This document shows, one piece after another, positions 9,436-33,837 of a stretch of DNA of 64,000 nucleotides. Source of the DNA: an uncultured Pseudomonadota bacterium. Its GTDB lineage: Bacteria > Pseudomonadota > Alphaproteobacteria > RF32 > CAG-239. Position 1 is the stretch's first letter; each line of letters starts with the position of its first letter. A program made the translations under genes and the position numbers. The stretch lies in assembly GCA_902785935.1 (NCBI GenBank), contig CADAAN010000003.1, positions 33,035 to 97,034 on the forward strand, written 5' to 3'. The notes beneath the pieces were generated by a model. It was given only the letters and a program-made list of their open reading frames with translations. It was not told where the DNA came from and ran no database searches.

Positions 9436-9470
9436 CGGCTCTTTTAAAAAAGAGCCGCTTTATTTCATTT
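9436..9470. terminator. Hairpin plus T-run terminator downstream of the DUF378 gene
   Basis: cggctcttttaaaaaagagccg followed by a T-rich run on the minus strand. Confidence 0.5.
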
Positions 9471-9480
9471 TAAGTTTTCA

Positions 9481-9693
9481 TTATCTTTTTTCGATGACGA
9501 TTGTATCGGGCGCAAATTGTCCGTAAATCAACCAGATAGCGGACAATCCGGCCAAGATATAAACAATACGTGCCAAAATGCTCATATCGCCGAAAATCAT
9601 CCCGACCAAGTTAAAGTTAAATGCACCGACAAGACCCCAGTTTAAGCCGCCGATGATGGCAAGCCAAAGTGCTATTTTAGAAAGGTAATACAT
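9481..9693 (-). CDS. DUF378-family small membrane protein
   Basis: GLNWGLVGAFNFNLV motif and two TM helices; 70 aa. Confidence 0.7.
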   Translation of the reverse strand: MYYLSKIALWLAIIGGLNWGLVGAFNFNLVGMIFGDMSILARIVYILAGLSAIWLIYGQFAPDTIVIEKR

Positions 9694-9796
9694 ATATGCT
9701 TCTCCTTATAAAAATAAAAATGTTTCCTTTTTCAAGCATTTTTGATATATGCCTTGAATTTTGATTTTCAAGATAAGCACTTTAAAACAAAAGAAA

Positions 9797-9826
9797 CGGC
9801 ACCCGAGGGCGCCGTTTTTTTTATTG
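9797..9826. terminator. Bidirectional hairpin terminator (aacggcacccgagggcgccgtt) between the DUF378 gene and the large lipoprotein gene
   Basis: Inverted repeat with flanking A and T runs. Confidence 0.5.
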
Positions 9827-9896
9827 AAAAAATAACATGTTTCTTAGAGTGATAATCATAACGAAAACAATCAAACATTATGATTTGAACGCTCGA

Positions 9897-12800
9897 CTAT
9901 TTAAAGCGCTTGACAAGCTTGTTGTTGAAGTAGATGGTGCAAATGCCATCTTTGACTTCAATCTTGTATCCATTGACCTTGGAATTCTGTTCCGATTTGG
10001 ACCAGCCCCAAGTGTTCATGGATTTCTCCGTCAGGGAACGAACATTAGTACCATTGTCCTTATAAAGAACCTGGTTGCTCTTATCCTCAACGGTAGCAAG
10101 CTGCCAATTACCGCTCTTGTCGGTGTCATAGCCTGCGACGTAGTCAGCGTCGTAGTAGCTACGCTCGACATAGTTGGCGTTCTTGATGGCGTCGTCGCTC
10201 GGAAGGGCGACATTGTCATTGGCACCGGCAAAGGGGATATAAGCACCCTTATGCTCTTTGGTGACAACGGCAAGACCCTTGATCTTATCAAGGTGACCAT
10301 CTTTGTTGATGTACTTGGAACCATTCCAAGCAGCAGCAACGGCACGGACATCAACGGACAAGATCGTGCCCGGGACGATATCCTCCACCTCAACCTCGAC
10401 CAGAATCTGGCGCTTCACAGCGTCAGAAAGGTTGGCAATAACAGTACCATCAATAGAATATACGCCGTAGAAGTTCTCCTGATAATTGGAGGCTTCATAA
10501 GCGATACCGTTGACGGTCTTGTTACCGGCGGCCACAATGGCATCGGTGCTGTTAGACATAACCATCTGACCATTGAAGGTATGGGTATAATCCCCATCCT
10601 TATAGGTGATGGTCTGATCAAAACCAAAGTCAGCGACATTCGTCTCAGACTTGGCACCATTGCTCATGGTGCTGGTGATTTGACCTTTTTTATTGCTAAC
10701 AGTCCAGTAGCTGTTCGAGCTGCTGGAAGTGCTGCCGTTACGCTCACCGTTGTAGACGGTAGCAAACAGATTATTTGCAGCATACACATCGGTGCCTGCC
10801 TGAGCCGTCAGGAAATAGGCGGGGGTGAAGGGGTCCCTACGAACCTGAACCTTCACATCGTCGGTCACGTCATAGACGTACACAACGGCCTGCCCATTTT
10901 CTACCTTAGGCTCATGCGTGCGCACGGTCTCCGGGGTATAGGTACCAACCATGTTGCCCTCGATGGTGTAGGTGGTCGGGTTGCCAACGGCGGCCTTGGT
11001 CTGCACGCCATCGTCGGTGGAGAGGGTCACCTCGACCTGAGGGGTCAGGGTGACGTTGTTACCGGCAACGGCAGAAGCAACCATATCGACAGCCTTTACT
11101 GCATCGACGGAAGTCGTTGCAAGCGTTACGCCATCAATGCTGACCACTTCGTCCTTCTCTTCAAGACGCAGATATGCGGGTTTGCCTGCAACGTAACCGC
11201 GGAAGTTACGAGCTGTGACCTCATAGGTCTTGCCGTTTTCCTCGACGGTTTTTTTCGGCTCGTTGGCGGTTTCGCCAAAAGATGCCCAGGTGAAGTTGGC
11301 GTTCAGGCCTTCCTTGGTTGCCACGCCAAAGGTGGGCGTCACGGTCAGGGTGGCCGTGATGATCTTTTCCTGAGTATAAGTCTGCTCGGAACCGGCTTTT
11401 TTGACGCCGTTCACGTATTCAGCCTTTTTCACAGTATTCAGACCAGTGCCAACCAGGGTATTCCCGTTCACGTTTGCCGTGAAGGAATAGTCCTTGCTCT
11501 CAACCTTCGTCTCCACGGTGTCGTCGTGCTTGACGAGCACGTCGTAAGCCGTGGAGGCATCCTTCGTCACCTTCTTACCTTCACAGGCAAGAGTGGCGCG
11601 CGTGCTGTTCTTGTAAGCATACGCGTCATAGGTGACATTATTGACGCTCTTGGTGCCATGGGCGGTGGCGGCGACTTTGCCTTCCAGCTCCTCAAAGGAG
11701 ATGCTACACTTGACAGTTACGCTTGCACCATTGTAAGAAAGAGTGGTCTCCTTCTTATTCAGGGTCCAATCGTAAATGTTCTGGGTGCTTTCCTTCTTGT
11801 TGGAGAGGGTGTTCCGATAAGTATTGCCGGAAACACCATTGCTGGTGGTGGCAAAATCGGAAGCACTTGAGGCAATCAGGTCGCTGTGCTCGCGGCCGGC
11901 ATAGCTGTACACAAACTCGTCGTCCAAGGTCTTGGCCAAATACTCCGGCTTAAGGTTGGATTTCATGTAGAAGTCCACCTTTACATCAAAACCATTTTCC
12001 TTAGCGGTAATGGTCTTGACCTGGCGGGTATTCTCGAACACTTCCTCGACCTTTACCCGAATCTCACGACTAGAGGTGGCGGAAAGGTTGATGCTGGCGG
12101 TTTCATTTTTCCAAGTAGCGGTGTATACGGGAGCAATGCTTGCAACGTAGTCGCTCACATTGTAGTATACGCCGTTAATGGTCTGAAGACCTTTTGCAGT
12201 GATGTTCTGCTGAACACCATCGCAAACCAGCTTGCAGATAACAGTTTCGGTGCAATCCTTGTAGCTGTAGGTGATGCTTTCATCACCATACAGGCTAAAG
12301 GTGCTCACGAAGCCTTCGCCCTCATGTCCATTACTGGCAGAGGCATTGAAAGTCATGTTACCTGTTCCTTCAACCTTGGTGCCGGTGGTCTTGTAACCAT
12401 CGGTGGAAGCCAGTACATAGCCATAATTCTGACCCTGTGCAGTAGCCGTTCTTACGAAAGGCTTGCGATCCACTTCGATGATGCCGGAGAGGCTCCATTC
12501 CTCGCGGGTGACAAAAGCTCCCTTGATGGTCTGGTTTTCCTCAGACAGCTCAACCACCATCCAACGACGAATGAATTTGTCCTCAGGATCCGGGGCAACA
12601 AAGAACTTGAGGCTCAGGGTGTCCCTCACCTCAAACTTCTTGCTGGCCTGAGCCTCTTTGCCGGCCTTTACAAAATCGTTAACCACATTTGCCACCAGAG
12701 TATGGATGGCGATGTAGTTGTTGGTTTTGTAGTAACCGCCGTTGTCGGCGGCTACATTGGCCTTCACCAGCGTGTCTTTCACGCTGTGGCTCCAAGCAAC

Positions 12801-13346
12801 ATCCGGGAAGTCCTTTGCCAGGGAATCCTTGGCAAAGTGGGCGTCAGAAGAGCTGTAGGTCAGCTCAAAGTCAGCACCATATTTCCCATTCGAAAGCTTG
12901 GAAGCAAGAGCGCGGACACTCTGCGTTCCATACCAGTCACCGGAGTTCCAGGTGTTGGAAGCTTCCTTAACCTCGCTCTCGGCGTACTTGACACCGTCGA
13001 GCTCGGCCTCAGAAGAAACTTCCTTCTCCACTTTGGCACCACCCTTGACCTCGATGGGTCTGGTCATGGAAGAACCGTACAGGTCTTTTTCACCCGCGGT
13101 CTTCCATGTGTTAGTGGACTTGTACTCGTAGTTCACTACGAGGTCAATCCACTCCCATCCGTAGTGGTTTGTCTTTAGCAGGGTGTCGGTCTGGGGCTTC
13201 GGCTGTTCCGGAGCCTTACCAGGAACATAGCCATAAGCAGAGGTGTTATCCCCTGCCTCAGTCTTAGTCTCCAATTCCATTTTGTTGCAAGCAACCATCG
13301 CGGCCATCATCCCGATAGCGGCGATCACTTTAAAACTTTTTTTCAT
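9897..13346 (-). CDS. Large (1149 aa) predicted surface lipoprotein or adhesin-like protein. Thr/Val/Gly/Asn/Tyr-rich and beta-rich. Compositionally atypical (G+C-rich) relative to the surrounding genome.
   Basis: MKKSFKVIAAIGMMAAMVAC is a signal peptide with a lipobox-like Cys. It is a single uninterrupted ORF. The long antisense ORFs in the six-frame track are artefacts of the high G+C. Confidence 0.7.
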   Translation of the reverse strand: MKKSFKVIAAIGMMAAMVACNKMELETKTEAGDNTSAYGYVPGKAPEQPKPQTDTLLKTNHYGWEWIDLVVNYEYKSTNTWKTAGEKDLYGSSMTRPIEVKGGAKVEKEVSSEAELDGVKYAESEVKEASNTWNSGDWYGTQSVRALASKLSNGKYGADFELTYSSSDAHFAKDSLAKDFPDVAWSHSVKDTLVKANVAADNGGYYKTNNYIAIHTLVANVVNDFVKAGKEAQASKKFEVRDTLSLKFFVAPDPEDKFIRRWMVVELSEENQTIKGAFVTREEWSLSGIIEVDRKPFVRTATAQGQNYGYVLASTDGYKTTGTKVEGTGNMTFNASASNGHEGEGFVSTFSLYGDESITYSYKDCTETVICKLVCDGVQQNITAKGLQTINGVYYNVSDYVASIAPVYTATWKNETASINLSATSSREIRVKVEEVFENTRQVKTITAKENGFDVKVDFYMKSNLKPEYLAKTLDDEFVYSYAGREHSDLIASSASDFATTSNGVSGNTYRNTLSNKKESTQNIYDWTLNKKETTLSYNGASVTVKCSISFEELEGKVAATAHGTKSVNNVTYDAYAYKNSTRATLACEGKKVTKDASTAYDVLVKHDDTVETKVESKDYSFTANVNGNTLVGTGLNTVKKAEYVNGVKKAGSEQTYTQEKIITATLTVTPTFGVATKEGLNANFTWASFGETANEPKKTVEENGKTYEVTARNFRGYVAGKPAYLRLEEKDEVVSIDGVTLATTSVDAVKAVDMVASAVAGNNVTLTPQVEVTLSTDDGVQTKAAVGNPTTYTIEGNMVGTYTPETVRTHEPKVENGQAVVYVYDVTDDVKVQVRRDPFTPAYFLTAQAGTDVYAANNLFATVYNGERNGSTSSSSNSYWTVSNKKGQITSTMSNGAKSETNVADFGFDQTITYKDGDYTHTFNGQMVMSNSTDAIVAAGNKTVNGIAYEASNYQENFYGVYSIDGTVIANLSDAVKRQILVEVEVEDIVPGTILSVDVRAVAAAWNGSKYINKDGHLDKIKGLAVVTKEHKGAYIPFAGANDNVALPSDDAIKNANYVERSYYDADYVAGYDTDKSGNWQLATVEDKSNQVLYKDNGTNVRSLTEKSMNTWGWSKSEQNSKVNGYKIEVKDGICTIYFNNKLVKRFK

Positions 13347-13687
13347 AACGCGTTATTGTTTTTGTTTTACTTACTTATTATGACATCCAAACACAACCAT
13401 AGGGGCGCTTGGATGGAAAAGTCACATTATGATTAGGCACACCTTAAGAAACATGAAAAATTTTTCCATCTTTTTCATTTAATTCACATAAGCTTAGACC
13501 TAATCTCTATAATTCAGTCTTTAACATAGCACAATTTGAATCAAAAAACAAGCAAAAAAATGCACTTTTTTGATTTTTTTGTTTATTTTTTGTACAAAAT
13601 ACCGAAAATAAGTTCTAATGCACTGAAAATACGTATTTTTTTAGAAAATCCGTCCTATTATTTCAGCATCCGGCAAAAACGCTGATT

Positions 13688-15160
13688 TTAGCCGCCGATT
13701 TGCTCAGGCAAAGCCTCTTCATTGGCAAGATTGCCGAACTGCGCATATTGTCCGTTCCAAAAAAGTTTGACCGTACCGACCGGACCGTGACGCTGTTTGC
13801 CGATAATCACTTCCGCCAAATTAGCCGTTTCACGATCGCGTTTTTGCCATTCGGCAATGCGCTGTTGCAAGTGTTCTGCCGTTTCATTTTGCTTTTGTTT
13901 GGGCTCTTCGTTGTGGATATAATAATTTTCTCTAAAGACAAACATCACGACATCGGCATCTTGCTCAATAGACCCCGACTCGCGCAAATCCGACATCAGC
14001 GGCCGCTTATCGTCACGGCTTTCAACACCGCGGTTTAACTGCGAAAGCGCAATCACCGGCACATCAAGCTCTTTTGCCAAAATTTTCAGCCCGCGTGAAA
14101 TTTCGGACAATTCCTGCACACGATTGACTTCTCCGCGTCTTGAAGGGCCTGAAATCAATTGAATATAATCAATCACAATCAGCCCCAAACCTTTTGTGCG
14201 TTTTAAGCGCCTCGCCCGGGTGCGAATCGCGTTGATGGTCAGCCCCGGCGTATCATCGATATAAAGCGGAATATTTTCAAGCTCTCTTACGGCCGCAGCG
14301 ATTCGCGTAAATTCGGCATTATTGAGCTCACCGGTGCGCATATTTTGCCCCGGCGTTTGTGTCACGGTCGATAAAATACGCGACGCCAGCTCATCCGAGC
14401 TCATTTCAAGCGAAAAAAACGCCACGCCTTTGTCTTTTTTATCAATGCTTTTTTCGCGGCTCATAAATTCTGCCACATTATAGGCAATATTGGTTGCAAG
14501 CGCCGTTTTTCCCATGGCGGGACGGCCTGCAATGATAATCAGATTTGACTTTGTCAGCCCGCCCAAGCGCCTGTCCAAGCGCTCAAGCCCCGTCGGCAAA
14601 CCCGACAATTTATCATCGCGCTGAAAAGCCTGTTCAATATAGCCGAGCGTCGATGTCAACGCTTTTGAAAAATCGATAAAATCACTTTGCGCCTGCCCCT
14701 GATCCGCAAGATGAAACAAATTTTGTTCCGCCTCTTCAATCTGGTCATTGGCCGTCAAATCAGCCGATTCGGTCATCGCATTGTTAACGATTTTATAGCC
14801 CGTATCAATCAGCTCACGGCGCAAATATTTGTCATAAATAAACTGTCCGTAATACTCAACATTTGTCATCGGTGAAGCACTGTCCGCAAGCCGAACAAGA
14901 TAATTTATTCCGCCGACATCCGCAAGCGTACCCTGCTGTTCAAAATAGTTTTTTAAGGTAATGACATCAGCGGATCTGTCGTGCATAATGATATTTGAAA
15001 TCACCTCAAAAATTTTGGCATGCACCGGATCGGCAAAATGCTTCGGCTGTAAAAATTCAGCCACTTTTTCAAAAGCCTTGTTATTGGCAAGCAAGGCCCC
15101 GAGCAAAGCTTGCTCGGCTTCGATATTTTTAGGCAATTTATCTAAATCAGGTGTTTCCAT
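13688..15160 (-). CDS. dnaB: Replicative DNA helicase
   Basis: N-terminal IEAEQALLGALL... and a RecA-like domain with GRPAMGKTA Walker A; 490 aa. Confidence 0.9.
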   Translation of the reverse strand: METPDLDKLPKNIEAEQALLGALLANNKAFEKVAEFLQPKHFADPVHAKIFEVISNIIMHDRSADVITLKNYFEQQGTLADVGGINYLVRLADSASPMTNVEYYGQFIYDKYLRRELIDTGYKIVNNAMTESADLTANDQIEEAEQNLFHLADQGQAQSDFIDFSKALTSTLGYIEQAFQRDDKLSGLPTGLERLDRRLGGLTKSNLIIIAGRPAMGKTALATNIAYNVAEFMSREKSIDKKDKGVAFFSLEMSSDELASRILSTVTQTPGQNMRTGELNNAEFTRIAAAVRELENIPLYIDDTPGLTINAIRTRARRLKRTKGLGLIVIDYIQLISGPSRRGEVNRVQELSEISRGLKILAKELDVPVIALSQLNRGVESRDDKRPLMSDLRESGSIEQDADVVMFVFRENYYIHNEEPKQKQNETAEHLQQRIAEWQKRDRETANLAEVIIGKQRHGPVGTVKLFWNGQYAQFGNLANEEALPEQIGG

Positions 15161-15360
15161 TTTTCATCGCTCTTTCAAACAAAATTCGACATAAGGCTAT
15201 ATGTGCATCATTTTTATCGAAAATGCGCCTAAAAAATTTTTTTGCCTGTTAATAATGGGGATAATTTCTCAAAACCTGCCCTTGATACAACTTTACAGGT
15301 GCCCGATACTTGAATAAACTCTTGTAACACAGGCACGATTGAGGGGTTTATAAAAAAACA

Positions 15361-15723
15361 TCAGGCTTTTTTGAGTTCGCGCCGACCTAAAACAGCGTTG
15401 ATGTAATCAAAATTTTTAAAGGCACCGTATGCCGCATCAAAGCTTTTTTGATCAAGTGTATAAAAAACCTGATTTGCCATTTTTTTGATAGCACTGTCAA
15501 TGCGCGCAAAAGCCTCGTTATAATCTGCATTATAGCGATTTTTATCTTTTTTAGCCACCAGATTGTGATAAGCCGCAACGACTTTAACGGTTTCTTCAGC
15601 CGGATTTTGATAACCTTTTTTCTCAAAGTCATGCATAATTTGTGCCATCGTCATGTAGTAGCACTTGTTTGTTAAGATATTTCGCTGCATATGGTTATTT
15701 GAATTGATAATCATACCGACCAA
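15361..15723 (-). CDS. Hypothetical protein (120 aa)
   Basis: ORF only; no recognisable motif. Confidence 0.35.
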   Translation of the reverse strand: MVGMIINSNNHMQRNILTNKCYYMTMAQIMHDFEKKGYQNPAEETVKVVAAYHNLVAKKDKNRYNADYNEAFARIDSAIKKMANQVFYTLDQKSFDAAYGAFKNFDYINAVLGRRELKKA

Positions 15724-15792
15724 AACCTTTCCATAAAAAGATATATAGCATTTTTAACAAACATTTGCAAGCAAAAATTTGATTTTTTCAAA

Positions 15793-15845
15793 AGCATAAA
15801 AAAAGCCACCCTCGGTGGTTTTTTATGGCGTATCCGGCGAGGCTC
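15793..15845. repeat. Direct repeat of the tRNA-Arg 3' end (tggcgtatccggcgaggctc) together with its downstream terminator hairpin. The second copy of 15984-16038.
   Basis: About 53 of 55 nt are identical between 15793-15845 and 15984-16038. Confidence 0.7.
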
Positions 15846-16018
15846 TCTGCTCAAGTTTGTAAGGCGCTTTTTCCTGCGCTGTCGCTTGTCAAACCGCCAA
15901 ACAAACCCCCGCCTGACATCAAAAAACTTTCCACCGGAAACTTTTTTGAAAGTCAGCTTCTCAGTTCTCGCCTCGCGCCTTTGAAGCATAAAAAAACCAC
16001 CCTTCGGTGGTTTTTTTA

Positions 16019-16095
16019 TGGCGTATCCGGCGAGGCTCGAACTCGCAACCTTCGGCGTCGGAGGCCGACACTCTATCCAATTGAGCTACGGATAC
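16019..16095 (-). tRNA. tRNA-Arg (anticodon CCG), 77 nt, genome-encoded CCA
   Basis: Manual fold of GTATCCG/CGGATAC acceptor stem, anticodon stem TCGGC/GCCGA with loop CTCCGAC, T-arm GCGAG-TTCGAGC-CTCGC, 3' GCCA. Followed by a hairpin plus T-run terminator. Confidence 0.8.
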
Positions 16096-16241
16096 ATTTT
16101 CTTTTGCCTTTATAACACGTTTTTTTGACTTCGCCAGCTTTTTTTTCATTTTTTTAAATTATTTTGCTTGACATCTTCATAAAATGTTTGTATGTAATGG
16201 CAACAAAGTTGTTTTCTATTTGATATAAAAGGATTTTTAAA

Positions 16242-16523
16242 ATGGCTAAAAAATGTGATTTAACAGGCACCGGCGTTCAGAGCGGGAATAATGTCAGCCA
16301 CGCAAACAATCGTACACGCCGTCGCTTTATGCCCAATTTGCATGTTGTTTCTTTGCTTAGTGAAACATTGAACAAAGTTTTTAAGCTCAAGATTTGCACA
16401 AAAACTTTGCGTTCGATCGAGCACAATGGTGGTTTAGATTCTTATCTTGAAAATACGGCTTCTAAGAATTTGACACCTGAGGCAAAAGCAATCAAAAAAC
16501 AAATTGCAAAAAACAAAAAATAA
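16242..16523 (+). CDS. rpmB: 50S ribosomal protein L28
   Basis: MAKKCDLTGTGVQSGNNVSHANNRTRRRFMPNLH matches the L28 consensus. A TTGACA-17-TATGTA promoter lies upstream. Confidence 0.85.
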   Translation: MAKKCDLTGTGVQSGNNVSHANNRTRRRFMPNLHVVSLLSETLNKVFKLKICTKTLRSIEHNGGLDSYLENTASKNLTPEAKAIKKQIAKNKK

Positions 16524-16703
16524 ATAAACTGTTTTTTTTCAAATCAGCAGGGTCTTTGTTCCCTGCTTTTTTTTGCATATTAAAACATCTGTAATGCGAC
16601 AAGTATTTTTGCCCTCTTGATTATTTTGTAATCGCTCTTGAAATTAAAAAAAAATAAGTTAAAAAAGCCGTATTGTTTATTTTTTAAGGGATCTTTTTTT
16701 AAG

Positions 16704-18362
16704 ATGAATAACGAAAGTAAAAACCTTTATACCGCAATTGTTTTATCCGTGTTGATTATCTTCGGTGTCAATCACTTTTTTGCAAAACAAACAAGGCCTG
16801 TTGAGGCACAAAATGTACAAATTGAGCTTCCACAACAGGCACAGATGCCTGAAGTCAATGCGTATTTAGATTTAAAAGATGCTCTAAAAGCGCATAAGCG
16901 TGTCCATATCACAACACCTGATTTAAATGCTTCTGTCCGTCTTCAAGGCGCACAGATTGATTTTGCCTCATTGAACAAATATAAGCAAACGCTTGAACAA
17001 AACAGCCCCGATGTCACGCTTTTAAGCCCTGTCGGTACGCAAGCGCCTTATTTTGCTCAGTTTGGATTTCTCTCAATGGATAAAGAACTGAAATTGCCTG
17101 ATGAAAAAGCGTTTTGGTATGCATCAAAAGACAAATTAACCCCAAATGCGCCCTTAACACTTGTTTGGGACAATGCCGAGGGGCTTAAATTTACGCGCAC
17201 AATCTCAATTGATGAGCATTATCTGATGCAAATTCATGATAAGGTTGAAAACATGATGGGCAAGCCTGTTACGCTTTATCCTTATGGCCGTATTTATCGT
17301 GCTTTTGATGAAAAATATGCGCAAGAGCGCTCTGTTGTGCATGAGGGCATGACGGGTGTTATCAATGGAACGTTGAAAGAATTTACCTTAAAAGATGTCA
17401 AAGAAGGTTCTCCGAAATCTTTTTCTTCTCAAGAGGGATGGGCTGGTTTTTCGGACAGATATTGGTTTTCGGCCTTTATTTTGGACGATAATGAGGACAA
17501 TACGATTCAATTTTCCAAGACAGGCGATAAAAGTTATCAGGTTGATTATCGCAAATCACCGATAACGATTGAGCCGAACGGCGAAAAAAATACATCTGTA
17601 CGTTTTTTTGTCGGTGCCAAAGAAATCAAATTATTGGATAAATATACCAAACAAAACGGTATCAAAAAATTTGATTTAGCCGTCGATTTTGGCTGGTATT
17701 ACTTTTTGACAAAGCCGTTTTTCTATATTTTGGATTTTCTTTACAAAATCATCGGCAATATGGGCTGGGCGATTTTGCTTTTTGCCGCACTGTTAAGGCT
17801 TTTGATGTTCCCGATTGCAAGCAAATCGTTTGACAGTATGTCCAAAATGCGCAAGATTCAGCCGAAAGTTGTCGCTTTGCAAGCCATGTACCAAAATGAT
17901 AAAATCATGCTTCAGCAAAAGACGATGGAACTTTATAAAAAAGAAAAAATCAATCCGGCATCGGGGTGCTTGCCTGTTTTTATCCAGATACCGATTTTCT
18001 TTTCTTTGTATAAGGTTTTAAACATCGCCATCGAAATTCGTCATGCACCGTTTATCGGTTGGATTAAGGATTTATCCGCGCCTGACCCTCTGACAATATC
18101 CGTATGGTCACATATTCCGTTACCCTATATTTTAGATATCGGTGTGTGGCCGATTTTGATGGGGCTTACGATGTGGGTTCAGCAAAAGCTTAATCCGGCG
18201 CCGGCCAACAAAGATCAGGCCAGAATGTTTGCGATGATGCCGTTTATATTTACCTTGATGCTCGGGCATTTTGCCTCAGGTCTTGTGATTTACTGGACTT
18301 TAAGCAATATCTTGTCAATAGCTCAGCAAAAGGCAATTATGTACAAAAACGGGGTTAAATGA
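16704..18362 (+). CDS. yidC: Membrane protein insertase YidC
   Basis: N-terminal TM, a large periplasmic domain, and a C-terminal 5-TM core with conserved hydrophilic groove residues. The stop overlaps the engB start. Confidence 0.9.
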   Translation: MNNESKNLYTAIVLSVLIIFGVNHFFAKQTRPVEAQNVQIELPQQAQMPEVNAYLDLKDALKAHKRVHITTPDLNASVRLQGAQIDFASLNKYKQTLEQNSPDVTLLSPVGTQAPYFAQFGFLSMDKELKLPDEKAFWYASKDKLTPNAPLTLVWDNAEGLKFTRTISIDEHYLMQIHDKVENMMGKPVTLYPYGRIYRAFDEKYAQERSVVHEGMTGVINGTLKEFTLKDVKEGSPKSFSSQEGWAGFSDRYWFSAFILDDNEDNTIQFSKTGDKSYQVDYRKSPITIEPNGEKNTSVRFFVGAKEIKLLDKYTKQNGIKKFDLAVDFGWYYFLTKPFFYILDFLYKIIGNMGWAILLFAALLRLLMFPIASKSFDSMSKMRKIQPKVVALQAMYQNDKIMLQQKTMELYKKEKINPASGCLPVFIQIPIFFSLYKVLNIAIEIRHAPFIGWIKDLSAPDPLTISVWSHIPLPYILDIGVWPILMGLTMWVQQKLNPAPANKDQARMFAMMPFIFTLMLGHFASGLVIYWTLSNILSIAQQKAIMYKNGVK

Positions 18363-18982
18363 TGGAAAGTGCGCATCAAAATTCTGTTCAAAAGCTTTTT
18401 TCGGTGCCTCCGAAATTTATGCTTTCGGTTGCAAAACTTGAACAATTGCCGCCGGATGATAAAAACGAGGTCGCCTTTGCCGGTCGTTCAAATGTCGGTA
18501 AATCAAGTTTGATTAATGCGCTGTTTTTCAGAAAAGACGTGGCAAAAACATCATCGACTCCGGGGCGCACGCAGCAACTCAACTATTTTGATTTTTTGGG
18601 CAAGATGTACCTTGTCGATTTACCCGGCTATGGTTATGCCAAGGCTCCTATTGCCGAAGTTAAACGTTGGCAAAATGTTTTAACAACCTATTTAAAAGGC
18701 AGGGTCAATTTAAGGCGCGTTTTTTTGGCGATTGATAGCCGAATCGGGATTAAAGATACGGATGAAGAAATTTTTAAATTGCTTGACACGGCGGCCGTAC
18801 CTTATCAGATTGTTTTAACGAAAATTGATAAAATATCTGCCGTCGCGCTTGAAAAAATAAAAAAGCAAATACTTGAAAAATTAGAAACACATCCGGCAGC
18901 ATTCAATGAAATTTTAGCCACAAGTTCCGAAAAGAAAATCGGCCTTGATGATTTGCGCACACAGATCGCATCGTTTTTATAA
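18359..18982 (+). CDS. engB: Ribosome biogenesis GTP-binding protein EngB/YihA
   Basis: GRSNVGKSSLINAL G1 motif, DLPGYG, TKIDK. Confidence 0.85.
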   Translation: MMESAHQNSVQKLFSVPPKFMLSVAKLEQLPPDDKNEVAFAGRSNVGKSSLINALFFRKDVAKTSSTPGRTQQLNYFDFLGKMYLVDLPGYGYAKAPIAEVKRWQNVLTTYLKGRVNLRRVFLAIDSRIGIKDTDEEIFKLLDTAAVPYQIVLTKIDKISAVALEKIKKQILEKLETHPAAFNEILATSSEKKIGLDDLRTQIASFL

Positions 18983-18991
18983 AAAAATAAT

Positions 18992-19214
18992 TTGACAATA
19001 TACTCTATTTATGTGATAATCAAAGCGTAACCAAAATGGTTGCGGTGTCTAATTAACACATTTGTCGTATAGCTCCTTTAAAAGAGGAGTTTCTGAGATA
19101 AGTGCATTTTGCATCGAATAAAGAAGACTGTACGACAACAGTTAATTAGCTCCTCCGTTTTAGGTTATTTGAAACGGAATTTTTTTTAAAGTATGAAAAA
19201 ATAGGAGAATAAAT
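18992..19214 (+). promoter_or_regulatory. Promoter (TTGACA-17 bp-GATAAT) plus a conserved ~190-nt structured 5' leader shared with the paralogous gene at 36749-37612
   Basis: Position-by-position similarity to the reverse complement of 37613-37809. Hairpins (aaccaaaatggtt; ctcctttaaaagaggag) are conserved or covarying. Confidence 0.5.
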
Positions 19215-20007
19215 ATGAGAAAAAGTCAATTTATATTTGTATTAATGCTTAGCACAGCTTTAGGTTTAGCAAATGTTTATGCCGGCGGTTCGTGCGCACC
19301 TGATGGTGACACAACAAGCACATGCCATTGGGAAATTGAAAACAGAGTCCTGACAATTTCGGGTTCAGGTGCGATGGTGAATTATAGTTCACCATCTATG
19401 TATCCTTGGTATTCACAAAAAGATTCTTATACATCCGTTGTGGTTGAGGGAGCTAATGAAACAACAGGAACGACAGGTGTTACTTCAATCGCAAAAGTGG
19501 CATTTCGAGGCAACAACCTGACCTCGGTTGTGATTCCCGATTCTGTTACTTCAATCGGACTGGGTGCATTTTATAGCAACAACCTGACCTCGGTTGTGAT
19601 TCCGGATTCTGTTACTTCAATCGGAAGGATGGCATTTTGGGGTTCTCAAGCAACGGATTTAGTCTGCAGTGCCGAAAATTTGCAAAGATATTTGGGTGCA
19701 GCTGGCGCATTTGTAAATTCGGGCGACATTAACCTCTCTTGCACAACAGGCATTTGTAAATTCGGGCGACATTAACCTCTCTTGCACAACAGGTGATTGT
19801 CAAGCCGTTTTGGAAGCTTGGGATACAGCAAAAGGTACAAATTACGCATCGCGCGCAAAAACAATCCTGACAAATCAGGACGGAAGTAAGACAATTTACG
19901 ATTTGAGCGGAAATTTGCTCGGCTATAAAGGCAAGCGCATTTACACCGTTGAAGAGGCCAATCAAGTTGCAGGCAAAGTCAATTCGGTCAAGATAAGGTA
20001 TCGATGA
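19215..20007 (+). pseudogene. BspA-type leucine-rich-repeat secreted protein, disrupted by a frameshifting 43-bp tandem duplication
   Basis: Signal peptide, BspA-like LRRs (VVIPDSVTSIG... twice), a stop after the duplication, and the C-terminal conserved domain (KRIYTVEEANQVAGKVNSVKIRYR) continuing in another frame. Removing one 43-bp copy restores a 249-aa ORF. Confidence 0.65.
19708..19793. repeat. Perfect 43-bp tandem duplication (catttgtaaattcgggcgacattaacctctcttgcacaacagg x2) inside the LRR gene
   Basis: 19708-19750 is identical to 19751-19793. 43 is not a multiple of 3. Confidence 0.85.
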
Positions 20008-20010
20008 GGG

Positions 20011-20150
20011 TGAGATCCGCGGGACTTCGCCCGCGGATAACAATAAGGGACAGGTCGCCCGATGTGGGGCACGCCCGTTAATGACAGGATAAATGCGGGG
20101 CACGCCCGCAGATAACAAAGGAATACACCCGCGGACAACCATAGGGCTGT
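20011..20150. repeat. G+C-rich degenerate repeat cluster: a hairpin ccgcgggacttcgcccgcgg, ggggcacgcccg twice, and cccgcRgaYaacaa three times
   Basis: Seen by eye in an otherwise AT-rich intergenic region immediately 3' of the LRR pseudogene. Confidence 0.4.
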
Positions 20151-20274
20151 TTTGTTTCGTTCAATATAGGTCAAATCACTATTTTTTTAATCTTAAATGT
20201 GATTTTGTTGTTGCAATTTATTTTATTTGATTTATTAGTGTTTGGTATAAAGAACTAATATTTTGAGGATAAAT

Positions 20275-21858
20275 ATGAACGAATATCGTACACACACCTG
20301 CGGCGAGCTCCGCAGCACGGATGTCGGCAAAAGGGTTTTGCTTGCCGGCTGGATACATCGCAAACGCAATTTAGGCAATTTGTGCTTTGTTGATCTTCGA
20401 GATCATTACGGCATCACACAGTGCGTGTTCGATTCGTCCTCGGATTTGTTTGAAAAAATTCAAAACCTGCGTGTTGAGAGCGTCATCGGTGTTGAAGGTG
20501 AAGTCGTGATGCGTGAAAGCATCAATAAAAATATCAAAACGGGCGATATCGAAATCAAAGTGCAAAATCTTGTTGTGCATTCTGAAGCGGACCAAATACC
20601 TTTTCAGGTTGCATTTGAAGATGATTCGCCCGAAGAATTGCGCCTCAAATACCGCTTTTTGGATTTAAGACGTGAACGTGTTCACAACAATATTATGCTG
20701 CGCTCAAAAGTCATCAAACGTATGCGTGAACTCATGATTGAGCAAGGTTTTACAGAATATCAAACTCCGATTTTGACGGCCTCTTCTCCTGAAGGTGCGC
20801 GTGACTTTTTGGTGCCTTCGCGCATTAATCCGGGCAGATTTTACGCATTGCCCCAGGCGCCGCAACAATTCAAGCAACTTTTGATGGTTTCAGGCTTTGA
20901 TAAATATTTTCAGATTGCGCCGTGTTTCAGGGATGAAGATCCGCGTGCTGACCGTTCTCCGGGCGAATTTTACCAACTTGATATGGAGATGAGTTTTGCC
21001 ACCCAAGAAGATGTTTTTGCTGTCTTAGAATATACAATGGGTACGATTTTTGAAGAATTTTCAAACGGCAGAAAAGTTTCAAAAGCACCATTTATCCGCA
21101 TTCCGTTTAAAGAAGCGATGCTTAAATACGGCTCGGATAAACCAGATTTAAGAAATCCGCTTGTTATTCAAGACGCCACAGGGTTGTTTGGTCATTCGGG
21201 ATTTAGCGTTTATGATACAAAAGTTGCCGAGGGCGAAAAAATCAGAGCGATTGTTTTGCCTGCATGCGGTGACAAACCACGTTCATTTTTTGATAAATTT
21301 GACGCTTTTGCCAAAGAAAATAATATGGGCGGCATGGCCTATATCGCTTTTTCTTCAAACGGGGCAAAGGGTCTTGCAAAACTTTTTGATGAGGTCAAAT
21401 TGGCTGAAATCAAAAACAGCTTAAATATCAAAGACGGCGATGCCGTGCTTTTGATGGCGGGCAAAGAAAAAGTTTTGAACAAATTTGCGGGTCTTACACG
21501 CAACAAGGCCGGCGAAGCGCTTGATTTGTTTGAAAAAGATGCTTTCAAATTGTGCTGGATTGTTGATTTTCCGTTTTATGAAGAAAATGAAGAAACGGGT
21601 GCGGTTGAATTTTCACACAACCCGTTCTCAATGCCTCAAGGCGGTATGGACGCTTTATTAAACAAAAATCCGCTTGATATTTTGGCTTATCAATATGATA
21701 TGGTATGTAACGGGGTGGAATTAGCATCCGGTGCAGTACGCAATCACAGGCCAGAAATTATGTATAAAGCCTTTGAAATTGCAGGTTATGATCACAGCGT
21801 TGTGGACTTGATCGTACGGTTATGCTCCTTTTGGATGAGCCGATTATCAGAGATGTGA
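20275..21858 (+). CDS. aspS: Aspartate--tRNA ligase. The C-terminal motif-3 region ([23 protein letters not shown]...) is in the -1 frame and ends at 21971, so there is an apparent frameshift.
   Basis: N-terminal OB fold and class IIb catalytic core. Frame A stops at 21858, while the conserved GLDR...RDVI.FP C-terminus is readable only in another frame from about 21804. Confidence 0.75.
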
Positions 21859-22078
21859 TTATCTTCCCCTTAAACGGCAAGGCTCAGGATTTGTTGATGC
21901 AGGCTCCGAACACCGTTTCCGAGGAGCAGTTAAAAGAGCTTCATATTAAACTTGATTTAGAAGAAAAATAAAATTTCTTAAGTCATTACTTTGATGTCAT
22001 TTTATTTTTAGGCGCAAATGCCGAGAATTAAAAAAAGTTGTGTTTGCGCTTGAAAAGAGCATTAAAAAGGATATAAAA

Positions 22079-24399: not shown

Positions 24400-24508
24400 A
24401 AAAACACCCCTTTATCTTTTGCGATAAAGGGGCTTGTTTTATGATATCAAAAAATAAAAATATATTTCCTTTATTGTTTTTTAAGAAAAACATTTATATA
24501 ATATTTTC

Positions 24509-24700
24509 AGCACTGAAAAGTGCGGGGCTTCTAAAAGTCTTACCATACACGGCAAAGGATATGTGCCGTAAAAATATATCCCCGATGATGGCTCGGGGAG
24601 CTTATAGCGTATGTTCAAGGATTTATCCTAAAGGTTATAAGAGTCAGCTCGTAATGATGATTGTTTTACTCTCCGACCGCTTTTTAAAGTGGTCTTTTTT
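24509..24700 (+). ncRNA. Candidate small RNA or cis-acting leader, copy 1 (predicted transcription start to terminator)
   Basis: -35 at 24474-24479, -10 at 24497-24502, hairpins gcac-tgaaaa-gtgc, cggca-N9-tgccg, ccccga-N7-tcgggg, terminator at 24675-24700. Confidence 0.35.
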
Positions 24701-24795
24701 CTTTAACCACAGTCTAAGGAGAATAAAATGATATCAAAAAATAAAAATCTGTTTCTTTTATTGTTTTTTAAGAAAAACATTTATATAATATTTTC

Positions 24796-24984
24796 AGCAC
24801 TGAAAAGTGCGGAGTTTCTAAAAGCTCTTAACTACTCGGCAAAGGATATGTGCCGTAAAAATATATCCCCGAATTTTTGGTCGGGGTGCTTTCAGCGTAT
24901 GTTCAAGGTTTTCCCAAAGGCTGAAAGGTCATTAGTAGTTATGATTTTTAGACTCTCCGACCGCTTTTTGAGTGGTCTTTTTTC
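24796..24984 (+). ncRNA. Candidate small RNA or leader, copy 2
   Basis: -35 at 24761-24766, -10 at 24784-24789. Same hairpins with loop changes (ccccga-atttttgg-tcgggg). Terminator at 24959-24984. Confidence 0.35.
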
Positions 24985-25078
24985 TTTAACCACAGTCTAA
25001 GGAGAATAAAATGACATCAAAAAATAAAAATTTGCTTCTTTTATTGTTTTTTAAGAAAAACATTTATATAATACTTTC

Positions 25079-25210
25079 AGCACTGAAAAGTGCGGGGCTT
25101 AAAACAGCCTTACCATACACGGCAAAGGATATATGCCGTAAAAATATATCCCCGATGATGGCTCGTATGATTTTTAGACTCTCCGACCGCTTTTTAAAGT
25201 GGTCTTTTTT
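25079..25210 (+). ncRNA. Candidate small RNA or leader, copy 3 (internally shortened), directly preceding the RBS of the 25238 gene
   Basis: -35 at 25044-25049, -10 at 25067-25072, terminator at 25185-25210. Confidence 0.35.
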
Positions 25211-25237
25211 CATTAATTTTAATGCGGGGAGAATAAA

Positions 25238-25627
25238 ATGATGTCATCACAAAATTGGTCGCTTAACGGGCTTATCAAATACACGGTAGAATATGAAAAA
25301 TACGAACCCATTCTTGATTATTATCTCAAAAAAAGTGTAGATTATTTGTCAGACAGCCAAAAAATCGATGTTATGCAACAAATTGCAAAAATCACTGATA
25401 ACCATATCTCTTTTGCCGGTATTTTGGCCTGTATCTATTTTAAAAACAGTGATAAAAATCCAAAAATTTGCCACCAAATAGAACAACTTGACGGTATGAA
25501 TAAGATATTAAAATACCTTAAAAAATACGTTTCACCAACGACATTTGATGAGGCAATCCAAAACATCGTGGAAGAAAAACTTTATGGTTATTTTCGAAAA
25601 ATAAAGCAAAAAACGTACCTTTTATAA
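25238..25627 (+). CDS. Hypothetical protein (129 aa) downstream of the triplicated leader
   Basis: GGAGA RBS. Its first ~20 nt resemble the start of each repeat unit. Confidence 0.5.
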   Translation: MMSSQNWSLNGLIKYTVEYEKYEPILDYYLKKSVDYLSDSQKIDVMQQIAKITDNHISFAGILACIYFKNSDKNPKICHQIEQLDGMNKILKYLKKYVSPTTFDEAIQNIVEEKLYGYFRKIKQKTYLL

Positions 25628-25728
25628 CTTTTTAAAAGCAATAAAACGGGGCGAAAGTCTTTTTACCTTTCAAAACACGGGTAAACGGACCTTCGCCCTG
25701 CAAATATGTACAAAAGTCGCCTTAACAC

Positions 25729-27492
25729 TTATTTATAAAGCGGGCGCTTTTGGTATTTTGTATGAAGCAAATGGTGCGACTTTTCATCACCCGGTTTGCC
25801 TAAATAATCAGCGTAGAGCTTTTGAATCGATTCGTTCTTGTGTGACAGTCTGTTTTGAGCACACTGATCTTCACAGTTCAAGCCTCTTGAACGCAATTTT
25901 CTGATTTCATCATTAATGCCCCAAGGCTTATCAAACGTTGCACCCATCACACGCGGTTGACCACCGCCGGCAATACATCCGCCGGGGCAAGCCATCACTT
26001 CAATAAAGTGATACGGCAATTCTCTGCCTTCAGCGATTGCCTTATTGATTTGTTCCATCACGGGTTCAACATTGCCGACGCCGTTGACAACAGCAATGCG
26101 CACTTTTGTCCCTTTAATATCAACTTCGGCAACCTTAACAGCTTCTAAACCTTCAATTGCGTGAAAATTGAGCTCACCCAATTCTTCACCCGTGATGAAG
26201 AAATAAGCCGATCTTAAAGCCGCCGTCATCACACCGCCGGTTACACCGAAAATCGTCGCCGCACCTGAATACTCACCCAAAGGATTGTCAGCAGGTTCTT
26301 CTTTCAAGTTCTTAAAGTTGATGCCGGCTTTTTTTATCATCTTGGCAAGCTCACGTGTCGTGATAACTTCATCAACATCCTGATATCCTGATGATGACAT
26401 TGTTTCATCACGTGCAATTTCCCACTTTTTGGCTGTGCAAGGCATGACTGATACAACTTTAACTTTTGCTGCATCAACACCGGCTTTTTGTGCCCAATAT
26501 GTTTTAGCTATTGCGCCAACCATTTCATGCGGCGATTTGCAAGATGACAAATTCGGGATATTTTCGGGATAATATTTTTCGAGATAGTCCACCCATGCCG
26601 GACAGCATGAAGTGAACATCGGTAAATTGTCGTTAGACGTAAAGCGTTTGATAAACTCTGATGCCTCTTCCATAATCGTTAAATCGGCGCCGAAGTTTGT
26701 GTCAAAAACCTTTGCAAAACCCAAACGACGCAATGCCGCATAAATTTTGCCCGTTAAATTTTCACCAAAATCAAAACCGAATTCTTCACCCAAAGCGACT
26801 CTGACAGCAGGTGCAATTTGCACCACAGTCGTCAATTCTTTATCGGCAAGCATGGCTTCAACCTTTGAGGTGTTGTCATAATCTGTAATAGCACCTGTCG
26901 GACAGTGCGCTGCGCATTGACCACATTTGATACACGGCGAATCGCCGAGTTTTGTATCATTTGCACCGGTGACTTTGGTTACAAAACCACGATTTAAGTA
27001 GCTTAAAGCCCACACATTTTGCACATTCTGACAAATGCTGACGCATCTGCCGCAAACAATACATTTTTGAGGGTCTAAAACAATGGCTTTTGTCGTGTCA
27101 TCTTTCGGCTCGGATGAAAGCATACGGATAATCTCGTTTTGGTCAATACCCATTTGCTCGCTCATGGCCTGCAATTCGCAAGAGCCGCTTCTTGAGCAGT
27201 TTAAGCAATCATTCGGATGATGGCTCAAAATCAGCTTCAAAACCGTCTTTCTGATTTCCTGTAACTCGGCATCGTTCGTGATGATTTCCATATTTTCGGA
27301 AACAGGCGTACAGCATGAACGCATAATTCTTCCGCCAACTTTAACGATACACATACCACATCCGGCACTTGGGTCAACATCGGGGTGTTTGCAAAGTGTC
27401 GGAATTTCTACCTGAACACTGCGCGCAGCGTCCAAAATGCTTGTGCCGGCAGGAACTTCAACATCCATATTATTGATTTTTAATTTAACCAT
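25729..27492 (-). CDS. hydA: [FeFe]-hydrogenase catalytic subunit (HydA/HndD type)
   Basis: N-terminal 2Fe-2S ferredoxin, 4Fe-4S Cys clusters, H-cluster motifs (TSCCPAW, MPCTAKK, CPGGCIAGGGQP). Confidence 0.85.
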   Translation of the reverse strand: MVKLKINNMDVEVPAGTSILDAARSVQVEIPTLCKHPDVDPSAGCGMCIVKVGGRIMRSCCTPVSENMEIITNDAELQEIRKTVLKLILSHHPNDCLNCSRSGSCELQAMSEQMGIDQNEIIRMLSSEPKDDTTKAIVLDPQKCIVCGRCVSICQNVQNVWALSYLNRGFVTKVTGANDTKLGDSPCIKCGQCAAHCPTGAITDYDNTSKVEAMLADKELTTVVQIAPAVRVALGEEFGFDFGENLTGKIYAALRRLGFAKVFDTNFGADLTIMEEASEFIKRFTSNDNLPMFTSCCPAWVDYLEKYYPENIPNLSSCKSPHEMVGAIAKTYWAQKAGVDAAKVKVVSVMPCTAKKWEIARDETMSSSGYQDVDEVITTRELAKMIKKAGINFKNLKEEPADNPLGEYSGAATIFGVTGGVMTAALRSAYFFITGEELGELNFHAIEGLEAVKVAEVDIKGTKVRIAVVNGVGNVEPVMEQINKAIAEGRELPYHFIEVMACPGGCIAGGGQPRVMGATFDKPWGINDEIRKLRSRGLNCEDQCAQNRLSHKNESIQKLYADYLGKPGDEKSHHLLHTKYQKRPLYK

Positions 27493-27504
27493 TTTAATTT
27501 TCTC

Positions 27505-29172
27505 CTATTCTTTACCGTCAAGCAATTTATTTTGATATTCTTCTTCATAAAAACGAAGCGTTGATAAAACCGGATTCGGCGCCGTTTGACCCAAACCGCA
27601 AAGCGACGCTTTTTGCATGGCAAACGCGATTTGCTTTAATTGTTCCAAATCTTTCTTTTTACCGCGACCGCGGTTGATTTTATCCAAGAGAACAAGCATT
27701 TGTTTGCCGCCGATACGACATGGCGCACATTTACCGCAAGATTCATCAACCGTAAAGTCAAGATAAAACTTTGCAAGCGAAACCATATCCGAGCTGTCAT
27801 CAATCACAATCATACCGCCGGAGCCCATAATTGAACCAAGTTTTTTGAGTTCTTCATAACAAACAGGCATATCCATATATTTTGCCGGAATCACACCGCC
27901 TGACGGACCGCCCGTTTGTACGGCTTTGAGCTTTTTGCCTTGAGGCACACCGCCGCCGATTTCGTTGACGATTTCATTGATTGTTGTACCCATCGGCACT
28001 TCAATAAGGCCTGAATGTTCAACTTGACCTGTTAAGGCAAAAACCTTTGTGCCCTTAGATGTTTCAGTCCCGAATGAGGCAAACCAATCAGCGCCTTTTA
28101 ATAAAATTTTAGAAACATTGGCAAGCGTTTCAACGTTGTTGACGCAAGAAGGTTTACCCCACAAGCCTTTGTTTGTCGGATACGGCGGACGCGGGCGCGG
28201 CGTACCTCTCGCCCCTTCGATGGAATGAATAAGTGCCGTTTCTTCACCGCAGACAAAAGCACCTGCACCAAGGCGGATGTCAACATTAAAGCTAAAGTCC
28301 GTGCCCATGATGTTGTTGCCTAAGAGTCTGTTTTTCTTGCAGGCCTGAATGGCTTTTTGCAACCTTTCAACCGCTAAAGGATATTCCGCCCTGACATAAA
28401 ACCAACCGGCTGTTGCGCCGATGGCATAGGCCGCAATCATCATACCTTCAATTACGGCATGCGGATCGCCTTCCAAAATCGAGCGATCCATATAAGCTCC
28501 CGGATCACCCTCATCACCGTTGCAGATAATAAATTTTTCATCAACGGTCGGGACTTTAGCGGCAAGTTCCCACTTCATACCGGTTGAAAAACCGCCGCCG
28601 CCTCTGCCGCGCAAGCCTGATTTTTTGATTTCTTCAACAACCTCTTGCGGCGTCATTGTTTTTAAGGCTTTTTCAAGTGCAAGATAACCGCCGCGCGCCA
28701 TATATTCTCTGATATCTTCAGGGTCAATGTGGCCGGCATTTTTCAAAACAACTTTTTCCTGTTTTTTGAAAAACGGCAGATCAAGCGATAAAACGTATTT
28801 TTGCAGATTTTCACAAACTTCAACATCATTATCCAAAGCCGGAATAACATATTCTTCCATAATTGCGCGAGTCGCATCTAAATCAATACGCTTGAAAAGC
28901 ACATCTTTTTTGCCTTTGATTTCAACTCTGATAAGCGGACCTTGTGCGCAAAGTCCCATGCAACCAGTGGCCACAATACGCACGCGCTCTTTCAAACCTT
29001 TTTCTTCTAAAATTTGTTCAATCAAAGCAATTAAATCATCACTGCCTGAAGATTTACAACCCGTAGAATGACAGCAATAAATATGCGCTTCATATTTTTC
29101 AATCTCGGCAAGTTTATCCTTAGCGATTTCGTGAATATCAAATCTTTTAGCAATTTCAGCCATATCAACCAT
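27505..29172 (-). CDS. hydB: NuoF-like flavoprotein subunit of a bifurcating hydrogenase (HydB/HndC type)
   Basis: GGGGFSTGMKWE FMN/NADH site, an N-terminal thioredoxin-like 2Fe-2S domain, and C-terminal 4Fe-4S Cys motifs. Confidence 0.85.
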   Translation of the reverse strand: MVDMAEIAKRFDIHEIAKDKLAEIEKYEAHIYCCHSTGCKSSGSDDLIALIEQILEEKGLKERVRIVATGCMGLCAQGPLIRVEIKGKKDVLFKRIDLDATRAIMEEYVIPALDNDVEVCENLQKYVLSLDLPFFKKQEKVVLKNAGHIDPEDIREYMARGGYLALEKALKTMTPQEVVEEIKKSGLRGRGGGGFSTGMKWELAAKVPTVDEKFIICNGDEGDPGAYMDRSILEGDPHAVIEGMMIAAYAIGATAGWFYVRAEYPLAVERLQKAIQACKKNRLLGNNIMGTDFSFNVDIRLGAGAFVCGEETALIHSIEGARGTPRPRPPYPTNKGLWGKPSCVNNVETLANVSKILLKGADWFASFGTETSKGTKVFALTGQVEHSGLIEVPMGTTINEIVNEIGGGVPQGKKLKAVQTGGPSGGVIPAKYMDMPVCYEELKKLGSIMGSGGMIVIDDSSDMVSLAKFYLDFTVDESCGKCAPCRIGGKQMLVLLDKINRGRGKKKDLEQLKQIAFAMQKASLCGLGQTAPNPVLSTLRFYEEEYQNKLLDGKE

Positions 29173-29175
29173 AAT

Positions 29176-29655
29176 CTAAGCCTCCTTAAAAACTTCACGC
29201 CATTCGTTTAAGATTTCGGGCACTTGTTCAGGCGTCATACGGCCGTAAGTTTTGCCGTTGACGACACAAACAGGTGCCAAACCGCAACAACCGACACAAC
29301 GCACACATTGCAAATGGAACATATGGTCAGGCGTCGATTCACCCTCTTTGATTTTAAGTTCTGATTTGAACTTTTCCAAAACTTTGTCATTGCCCTTCAA
29401 ATAACAAGCCGTACCCGTGCAAACGGAAATGACGGCCTTGCCGGGGGCGACAAGCTTAAAAAAGTTGTAAAACGTCAAAACTTCATAAATGCGTGCAAGC
29501 GGAATGCCCATTGTGGTGGCTAAATCCATCGCATCTTTCCAGTCAACATAACCTTTGACACCTTGAATTTCATGCAAAGCCATAATCAGTGAGCCGCGTT
29601 TTTTACGCCATTTATCACCAACCTGACAACCAAGACAAGTATCTTCACTCATCAT
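29176..29655 (-). CDS. hydC: NuoE-like 2Fe-2S subunit (HydC/HndA type)
   Basis: Thioredoxin-like ferredoxin with CTGTAC...CVRCVGCCGLAPV. Confidence 0.8.
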   Translation of the reverse strand: MMSEDTCLGCQVGDKWRKKRGSLIMALHEIQGVKGYVDWKDAMDLATTMGIPLARIYEVLTFYNFFKLVAPGKAVISVCTGTACYLKGNDKVLEKFKSELKIKEGESTPDHMFHLQCVRCVGCCGLAPVCVVNGKTYGRMTPEQVPEILNEWREVFKEA

Positions 29656-29917
29656 ATTCTCCTAAAATAAGCGGGTTTCATTTCTGCGCGCATTATACAA
29701 ACTTTTTTCATCAAATCAAGCGCATTTTAACAGATTTTCAGAGAATATTTGATATAGATTTTAGGTGATAGTCTATCCGATTTATGTTTTCATTTTATAA
29801 ATTGGGCGGAAATTTAAATGGAAAAAATATCATAAGAAGTAAAACAATAAAAATCATTGACAAAAAGTCAAATTTGTATTAATATACATATATAGTTGCA
29901 ATTCGAAGAGATAAGAA

Positions 29918-31405: not shown

Positions 31406-31415
31406 ACTTTGCGAT

Positions 31416-33834: not shown

Positions 33835-33837
33835 TTT

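Follow-up and report, generated by a model that had tools for sequence, protein, structure and literature searches.

Features of the Locus

The stretch of DNA analysed in this study, referred to here as the window, comprises 64,000 nt of a 99,294-bp MAG contig of an uncultured rumen alphaproteobacterium, and its features are listed in Table 1. An LRR gene of the BspA type within it is interrupted by two adjacent copies of a 43-bp unit. The copies are identical at 43 of 43 bases (19708–19750 and 19751–19793), as the original prediction had stated, and TRF reports them at 19707–19793 with a period of 43, 2.0 copies, 100% matches and a score of 174. Beyond the unit, the identity continues for a single base (G) on the left side and stops at once on the right. 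This is the sole perfect tandem repeat of more than 10 nt found by TRF within the 64-kb window, and a perfect 43-nt tandem repeat in 64 kb cannot have originated by chance; the observation itself is thus confirmed as real and far beyond chance expectation.

The two open reading frames on either side of the duplication were recovered where they had been placed previously (19215–19775, 186 aa; 19810–20007, 65 aa). The perfect repeat lies inside the ORF and shifts its frame, and exact loss of one copy restores the ORF, giving a product of 249 aa. The same protein, residue for residue, is present as P0241 in two other assemblies of the strain. This fused protein is also collinear with the paralog encoded on the minus strand at 36749–37612 (tblastn, E = 1e-15), including the CSAENLQ/YCAENLK segment and the C-terminal KRIYT..YR tag, as had been proposed. 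It matches Pfam LRR_5 with E = 2.3e-13 and scores 50.6 bits; the paralog scores 73 bits, and both clear the gathering cut-off of 27.7. The match to LRR_5 and the identity with P0241 bear out the structural claim made originally, namely that a BspA-type LRR gene, intact in other respects, is put out of frame by the duplication. Elsewhere in the gene there is no further defect, and the duplication site sits in the segment that is most conserved among paralogs. No standing tract of 1–9-nt units was seen in the gene, in which TRF shows only the two copies of 43 nt and the in-frame 66-nt LRR repeat.

Judged by eye, the N-terminus of this putative secreted protein resembles a signal peptide (MRKSQFIFVLMLSTALGLANVYA). 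In NCBIfam, the match to adhesin_HupY fell far under the cut-off (31 vs. 1250 bits), and all adhesin-like matches were below threshold. The window genes resemble BspA-type LRR proteins (Pfam LRR_5, PF13306; Tannerella forsythia BspA) in their LRR_5 match, signal peptide and variable repeat number, but the proteins described here are much shorter (249–403 aa), and they possess a family-specific Cys-rich C-terminal region and a C-terminal tag of ∼24 aa.

The tag, KRIYT[IV][DE]EA..V....N....[IL][RK]Y[RK], was observed at 19933–20004 (plus strand), 36752–36823 (minus strand) and 58025–58096 (plus strand) of the window, and at approximately 3600–3740 of contig L007. It forms the C-terminus of the LRR family proteins, of a YD-repeat-like protein in UBA3773, and of a 67-aa ORF whose N-terminus is unrelated. 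Neither the tag nor the 67-aa ORF is represented by a model in Pfam or NCBIfam. This ORF, which carries the tag only, could be a remnant or else a small tagged protein. The tag may be a sorting or anchoring signal.

Immediately beyond the interrupted gene is a G+C-rich intergenic island, which had also been reported previously and is real, with a GC content of 59% compared with 40% for the window, and several short hairpins. The island is identical in the other, one-copy assemblies of the strain and is therefore unrelated to the duplication. In a sister contig of 94% identity (L019), it is partly kept with a different repeat content. Its predicted fold is not unusually stable (z = −1.3). A dispersed repeat was considered and rejected, as the motif has six matches in the window against 1.7 expected, and the close matches are the copies in the island only.

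Elsewhere in the window, a putative lipoprotein of 1149 aa (MKKSFKVIAAIGMMAAMVAC...) is encoded on the minus strand at 9837–13346, with no match in Pfam or NCBIfam, and two antisense ORFs of unusual length (677 and 430 aa) overlap it on the plus strand. A tandem repeat of 86 bp (2.1 copies, 90% identity) occurs at 3461–3639, in an intergenic or short-ORF region.

Table 1. Features of the window and of related contigs, with positions counted from the first nucleotide of the window unless a contig is named.
Feature	Position	Strand	Details
A9 homopolymer	16646–16654	+	A10 in both other assemblies; fourth window-private indel
Promoter-like site	18992–19020	+	TTGACA-17-GATAAT, 11/12, with TG; kept in front of family genes
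Structured 5' leader RNA, ∼165 nt	19027–19190	+	Ends in a terminator-like hairpin (19154–19178) and T-run
Truncated ORF, 186 aa	19215–19775	+	Public protein P0010; putative signal peptide, N-terminal Cys-containing region, frameshifted tail ICKFGRH
LRR units of 66 bp	19478–19638	+	2.4 copies, in frame; TRF period 66
Copy 1 of the 43-bp unit	19708–19750	+	CATTTGTAAATTCGGGCGACATTAACCTCTCTTGCACAACAGG; codes for ..AFVNSGDINLSCTTG.. in the LRR protein
Copy 2 of the 43-bp unit	19751–19793	+	Identical to copy 1; seen only in the window contig
Copy 1/copy 2 junction			CTCTTGCACAACAGGCATTTGTAAATTCGGG
Single-copy junctions			GCAGCTGGCGCATTTGTAAATTC and TTGCACAACAGGTGATTGTCAAGCC
Out-of-frame gene remainder	19741–20007	+	C-terminal 88 aa including the tag KRIYTVEEANQVAGKVNSVKIRYR; tblastn frame +1; ORF finder gives 19810–20007
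G+C-rich intergenic island	20011–20150	+	3–4 imperfect repeats of ∼25–31 nt, each with a short GC hairpin (e.g., ATCCGCGGG/CCCGCGGAT)
Private 70-nt deletion junction in aspS	21807/21808	+	Gene at 20275–21971; junction sequence GCGTTGTGGACTTGATCGTACGG
283-bp tandem array	24441–25165		2.5 copies, 88% identity; paralogous small ORFs (∼90–96 aa, MISKNKN...)
Private 60-nt deletion junction	25164/25165	+	End of the 283-bp tandem array; junction sequence GATGATGGCTCGTATGATTTTTAGAC
Intact paralog, 287 aa	36749–37612	−	LRR_5; same leader and same C-terminal tag as the 249-aa gene
Second leader copy	37621–37784	−	Upstream of the paralog
439-aa protein	39330–40649		
67-aa ORF with only the C-terminal tag	57896–58099	+	KRIYTIDEANAVAGKTNTFSIRYR
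Leader copies outside the window	L001:5807–5975; L002:551–719; L003:2073–2241; L003:7000–7170		

The LRR Family in Public Collections

A search among 5.8 billion proteins returned many relatives of the LRR protein, originating from MAGs of uncultured Alphaproteobacteria. The nearest of these share 59–84% identity with it and differ mostly in their count of 22-aa LRR units, of which there are about two in the window allele, at least three in the relatives and many more in P0001 (403 aa), the longest relative retrieved. Variation in the family is mainly in LRR repeat copy number. The relatives occupy several different genomic contexts and therefore represent a multi-copy paralog family, which is fast-evolving. 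The truncated 186-aa product (P0010), present in both NCBI and ENA, was located on one contig, that of 99,294 bp. Among retrievable contigs, exact look-ups with P0010, EngB and the 439-aa protein (39330–40649) gave no hit.

A recurrence of the duplication was sought in proteins P0001–P0009 and P0011 and in contigs L001–L004, L026 and L027, and none was found, all of them being single-copy. Each of the relatives possessing the C-terminal region of the window protein has exactly one copy of AFVNSGDINLSCTTGDC, and in contig L004, the DNA of which is identical around the site, there is one copy of the unit. A scan of JGI metagenomes with the conserved core of the 43-bp unit revealed two loci only, with one match each.

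Searching with EngB against contigs of species-representative genomes retrieved other species only, at ≤83% identity. These relatives, from RUG, RGIG and UBA MAGs, put the organism among rumen Alphaproteobacteria. In L006, the one relative whose locus covers aspS, engB is followed by this gene in opposite orientation, and no LRR gene separates the two. There is likewise no LRR gene after engB in L005, and the scan gave a single LRR-related match, the C-terminal tag upstream of yidC in L007.

Promoter and Leader RNA

The LRR genes are preceded by a structured leader, which, in the six distinct copies found, follows a strong promoter-like site and precedes the start codon, each copy belonging to a BspA-type LRR gene. 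The six comprise two from the window, one each from L001 and L002, and two from L003; L004, in which just the 3' end of the leader is present, and L027, which repeats one of the L003 copies, were left out of the set, and no leader was present at L026. In each leader an invariant 5' hairpin of 21 nt (GTAACCAAAATGGTTGCGGTG) is accompanied by a multi-stem junction and by a hairpin resembling a terminator. From the six sequences, RNAalifold predicted 54 pairs, and compensatory changes were seen in 16. Across the alignment 91.9% of cells were paired, compared with 38–49% when partners were slid, and the observed covariation was reached in none of 500 shuffles. An Rfam search gave no match to the leader, the highest-scoring family, PyrR, reaching 23.8 bits where its gathering score is 54. 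The leader may be an undescribed riboswitch-like attenuator, and it is the most interesting thing near the duplication.

Comparison With Independent Assemblies of the Same Strain

Two further assemblies of the strain were available for comparison. The first is scaffold_366, an ENA scaffold of 107,257 bp (ERZ28613383, STEW19-1_SAMEA5383944), which was compared as four overlapping pieces (L018, L020, L022, and L024). The second is an independent MEGAHIT assembly (ENA ERZ27280375), represented by contigs L023 (k141_1391528) and L021. Over up to 51 kb, scaffold_366 is 99.9–100% identical to window positions 9216–60680, and it possesses a single 43-bp copy (pieces L018 and L022) and a 249-aa LRR gene equal to the predicted fusion (P0241). 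L023, spanning 9216–21803 of the window, has one copy and the same 249-aa gene. The duplication is thus absent from both independent assemblies (scaffold_366 and k141_1391528), each of which is at least 99.97% identical to the window. In a collection of 15 billion proteins, the one-copy product P0241 occurs on two contigs and the truncated product on one.

Between scaffold_366 and the window, the differences amount to two SNPs, a further six SNPs in a cluster (25951–25990), the A9/A10 homopolymer, the 43-nt duplication, and deletions of 70 and 60 nt. Where the two references overlap, every SNP position of the window agrees with one or other of them, so the window has no private substitutions (0 private SNPs), and its private indels number four (A9/A10, +43, −70, and −60). 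The three large events fall within 5.5 kb, and the blocks of 2,058 and 3,358 nt between them are 100.000% identical to scaffold_366. No further structural difference from the other assemblies was found in the compared stretches 9216–19706 and 25165–60680. At all three junctions microhomology is ≤1 nt, and there are no Ns between the two copies or at the deletion junctions of the window.

The six clustered SNPs, which fall in a 40-nt stretch of the [FeFe]-hydrogenase-like gene, set the window and L021 apart from scaffold_366. A cluster of this kind amid 51 kb of near-identical sequence suggests a small recombination patch or a strain variant.

The 70-nt deletion lies 2,058 nt downstream of the duplication, in aspS, and was recognised by comparison with Thermus thermophilus AspRS and the L006 ortholog, against which the window is short by 70 nt. 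It removes ..KFGGMINAFHYGAPPHAG.. and shifts the frame just before motif 3, so that the GAPPHxG/motif-3 region of this class II aspartyl-tRNA synthetase is lost and the enzyme truncated. A search with the N-terminal part of the enzyme found the truncated AspRS (527 aa, P0121) on the same 99,294-bp contig, and an intact AspRS of 588 aa, 100% identical over the query, on scaffold_366. Given the role of motif 3 in class II synthetases, the deletion would be expected to abolish an essential enzyme and, if real, to be lethal.

A further 3,358 nt beyond the aspS deletion lies the 60-nt deletion, 431 nt from the start of L021. The loss, at 25165 relative to the two other assemblies, is in-frame within one small ORF, and L021 (window positions 24734–41405), which like scaffold_366 retains these 60 nt, otherwise matches the window at 100.000% over 16,241 nt. 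The point at which L023 branches into the aspS allele of another strain (21803/4) is exactly where the 70-nt deletion begins, and L021 starts in the tandem array; both deletion sites are natural contig break points, at which assemblers break. The duplication site is internal to both of the other contigs rather than at a contig end. A cycle in a de Bruijn graph was considered as a cause of the duplication and ruled out, as the flanks of the 43-bp unit share no k-mer and only 1 nt.

Origin of the Duplication

The most likely origin of the 43-bp duplication is an artefact of assembly, not a genetic on/off switch. We estimate a probability of about 0.6 that the second copy is not in the genome of the organism and instead reflects a local assembly error in the 99,294-bp contig. 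Four neighbouring contigs would have been joined end to end, at inferred joins of which the first would have left a 43-nt overlap unmerged, producing the perfect tandem duplication, and the next two would have left gaps of 70 and 60 nt unfilled, producing apparent deletions. The true gene would then encode an intact, secreted BspA-type LRR protein of 249 aa, expressed from the conserved promoter and structured leader. Four abutted contigs offer the simplest single cause for all three large events. The presence of private indels without private SNPs, together with a destroyed aspS, clustered on a single contig, fits an assembly error better than it does biology.

Errors of this type are known from scaffold joins in MAGs. 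Chen et al. (2020) (Genome Res; PMC7111523) described duplicated sequence at joins where an overlap had been left unmerged in IDBA-UD and CLC assemblies, suspected that local assembly errors are commonest in assemblies made with IDBA-UD, and noted that such errors corrupt gene sequences. Single rumen samples were assembled with IDBA-UD by Stewart et al. (2019) (PMC6785717), and scaffold_366 is a re-assembly of one sample from that study. The window resembles the errors in PMC7111523 in that an unmerged overlap would yield the duplicate and in that wrong protein sequences spread into databases. The published errors cluster at repeats and strain-variable regions, and those proposed here are private to one assembly and lie beside join-like defects. 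In that paper, however, the duplicate flanks an inserted run of Ns, whereas the window junctions are free of Ns. This speaks against an artefact, as does the position of the duplication site in the interior of the contigs of both other assemblies; 43 or 44 would also be unusual as a de Bruijn k or k−1. Furthermore, a real polymorphism or phase variation would likewise yield near-identical genomes with one and two copies.

A real event is possible but rather unlikely in our assessment, namely a very recent, one-off slipped-strand or replication error that inactivated one member of a redundant LRR surface-protein family and was not programmed to revert, leaving a young pseudogene or a neutral loss-of-function allele. 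Bacteria are known to form tandem duplications spontaneously even where microhomology is slight. The copies are 100% identical and the gene is otherwise undamaged, so any real event must be recent. Loss of one member should be tolerable in a family that is large and turning over, as is seen in the occurrence of paralogs in different contexts, the variable LRR copy number and the tag-only ORF, a possible remnant, at 57896–58099. Against this, the duplication is private to a contig that has no private SNPs but shows two more large private indels close by, one of them the implausible deletion in aspS, and if the other two events are artefacts then a third anomaly in the same 5.5 kb is most likely an artefact too.

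The original prediction had gone further and raised the prospect of phase variation, in which the two-copy state would be the OFF position of a reversible switch, the 43-bp copy being formed and precisely excised by slipped misalignment or recombination. We consider this highly improbable. The unit is not a multiple of three in length and the repeat is perfect, so that exact excision restores the gene; both states occur in genomes with fewer than 10 SNPs between them over 51 kb, and the target, predicted to be secreted or surface-located, belongs to a hypervariable family. In the simple sequence repeat (SSR) contingency loci of Haemophilus, Neisseria and Campylobacter, surface proteins are switched ON and OFF by frameshifts through changes in repeat copy number. 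The proposed switch would share this principle of frameshifting through copy-number change, but those loci hold standing tracts of many units of 1–9 nt, whereas the 43-nt unit is present twice here and singly in all relatives, with no pre-existing repeat tract. Only 1 nt of microhomology was available to promote the duplication.

A closer precedent for a switch is capsule phase variation in the pneumococcus, in which cap3A, cap8E and tts undergo spontaneous tandem duplication (Waite et al., 2001, Mol Microbiol 42:1223; Waite et al., 2003, Microbiology 149:497; both as cited in PMC4022640). As far as that citation describes it, the cap3A type resembles the window in that a perfect tandem duplication of tens of bases, not a multiple of three, lies in an ORF and turns off a gene for a surface structure, and in that precise excision would restore the gene. 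By the same account, two-way switching was shown in culture in the pneumococcus and duplications recur at many positions in the genes, whereas the window offers one instance on one contig with no recurrence among ∼12 relatives, either at the duplication site or elsewhere in the family. The alleles and paralogs examined (P0001–P0009, P0011, L001–L004, L026, and L027) are all one-copy. The claim of an on/off switch is thus unsupported, since ∼12 other alleles or paralogs are without the duplication and the two-copy state is found in a single contig, accompanied by two other private structural defects of artefact-like appearance within 5.5 kb.

Implications

It is very doubtful that the one- and two-copy alleles are both real and interconvert, such that a rumen alphaproteobacterium would be toggling a BspA-type LRR protein. 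If this were true, the mechanism known from the pneumococcal capsule would be found to operate in a Gram-negative gut commensal as well, and on a family of protein adhesins, and if the duplication were real and heterogeneous it would be a rare case of duplication-based switching outside the pneumococcus.

An assembly artefact, the preferred reading, carries a caution, as a perfect tandem duplication in a MAG contig can look like a textbook candidate for phase variation. Truncated proteins from this contig are already in public collections, in the form of the 186-aa LRR fragment (P0010) and the 527-aa AspRS fragment (P0121), and independent assemblies of the same strain reveal the intact forms of both. 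The pattern of private indels without private SNPs, clustered at breakpoints, offers a cheap test by which assembly errors can be told from real pseudogenes or switches.
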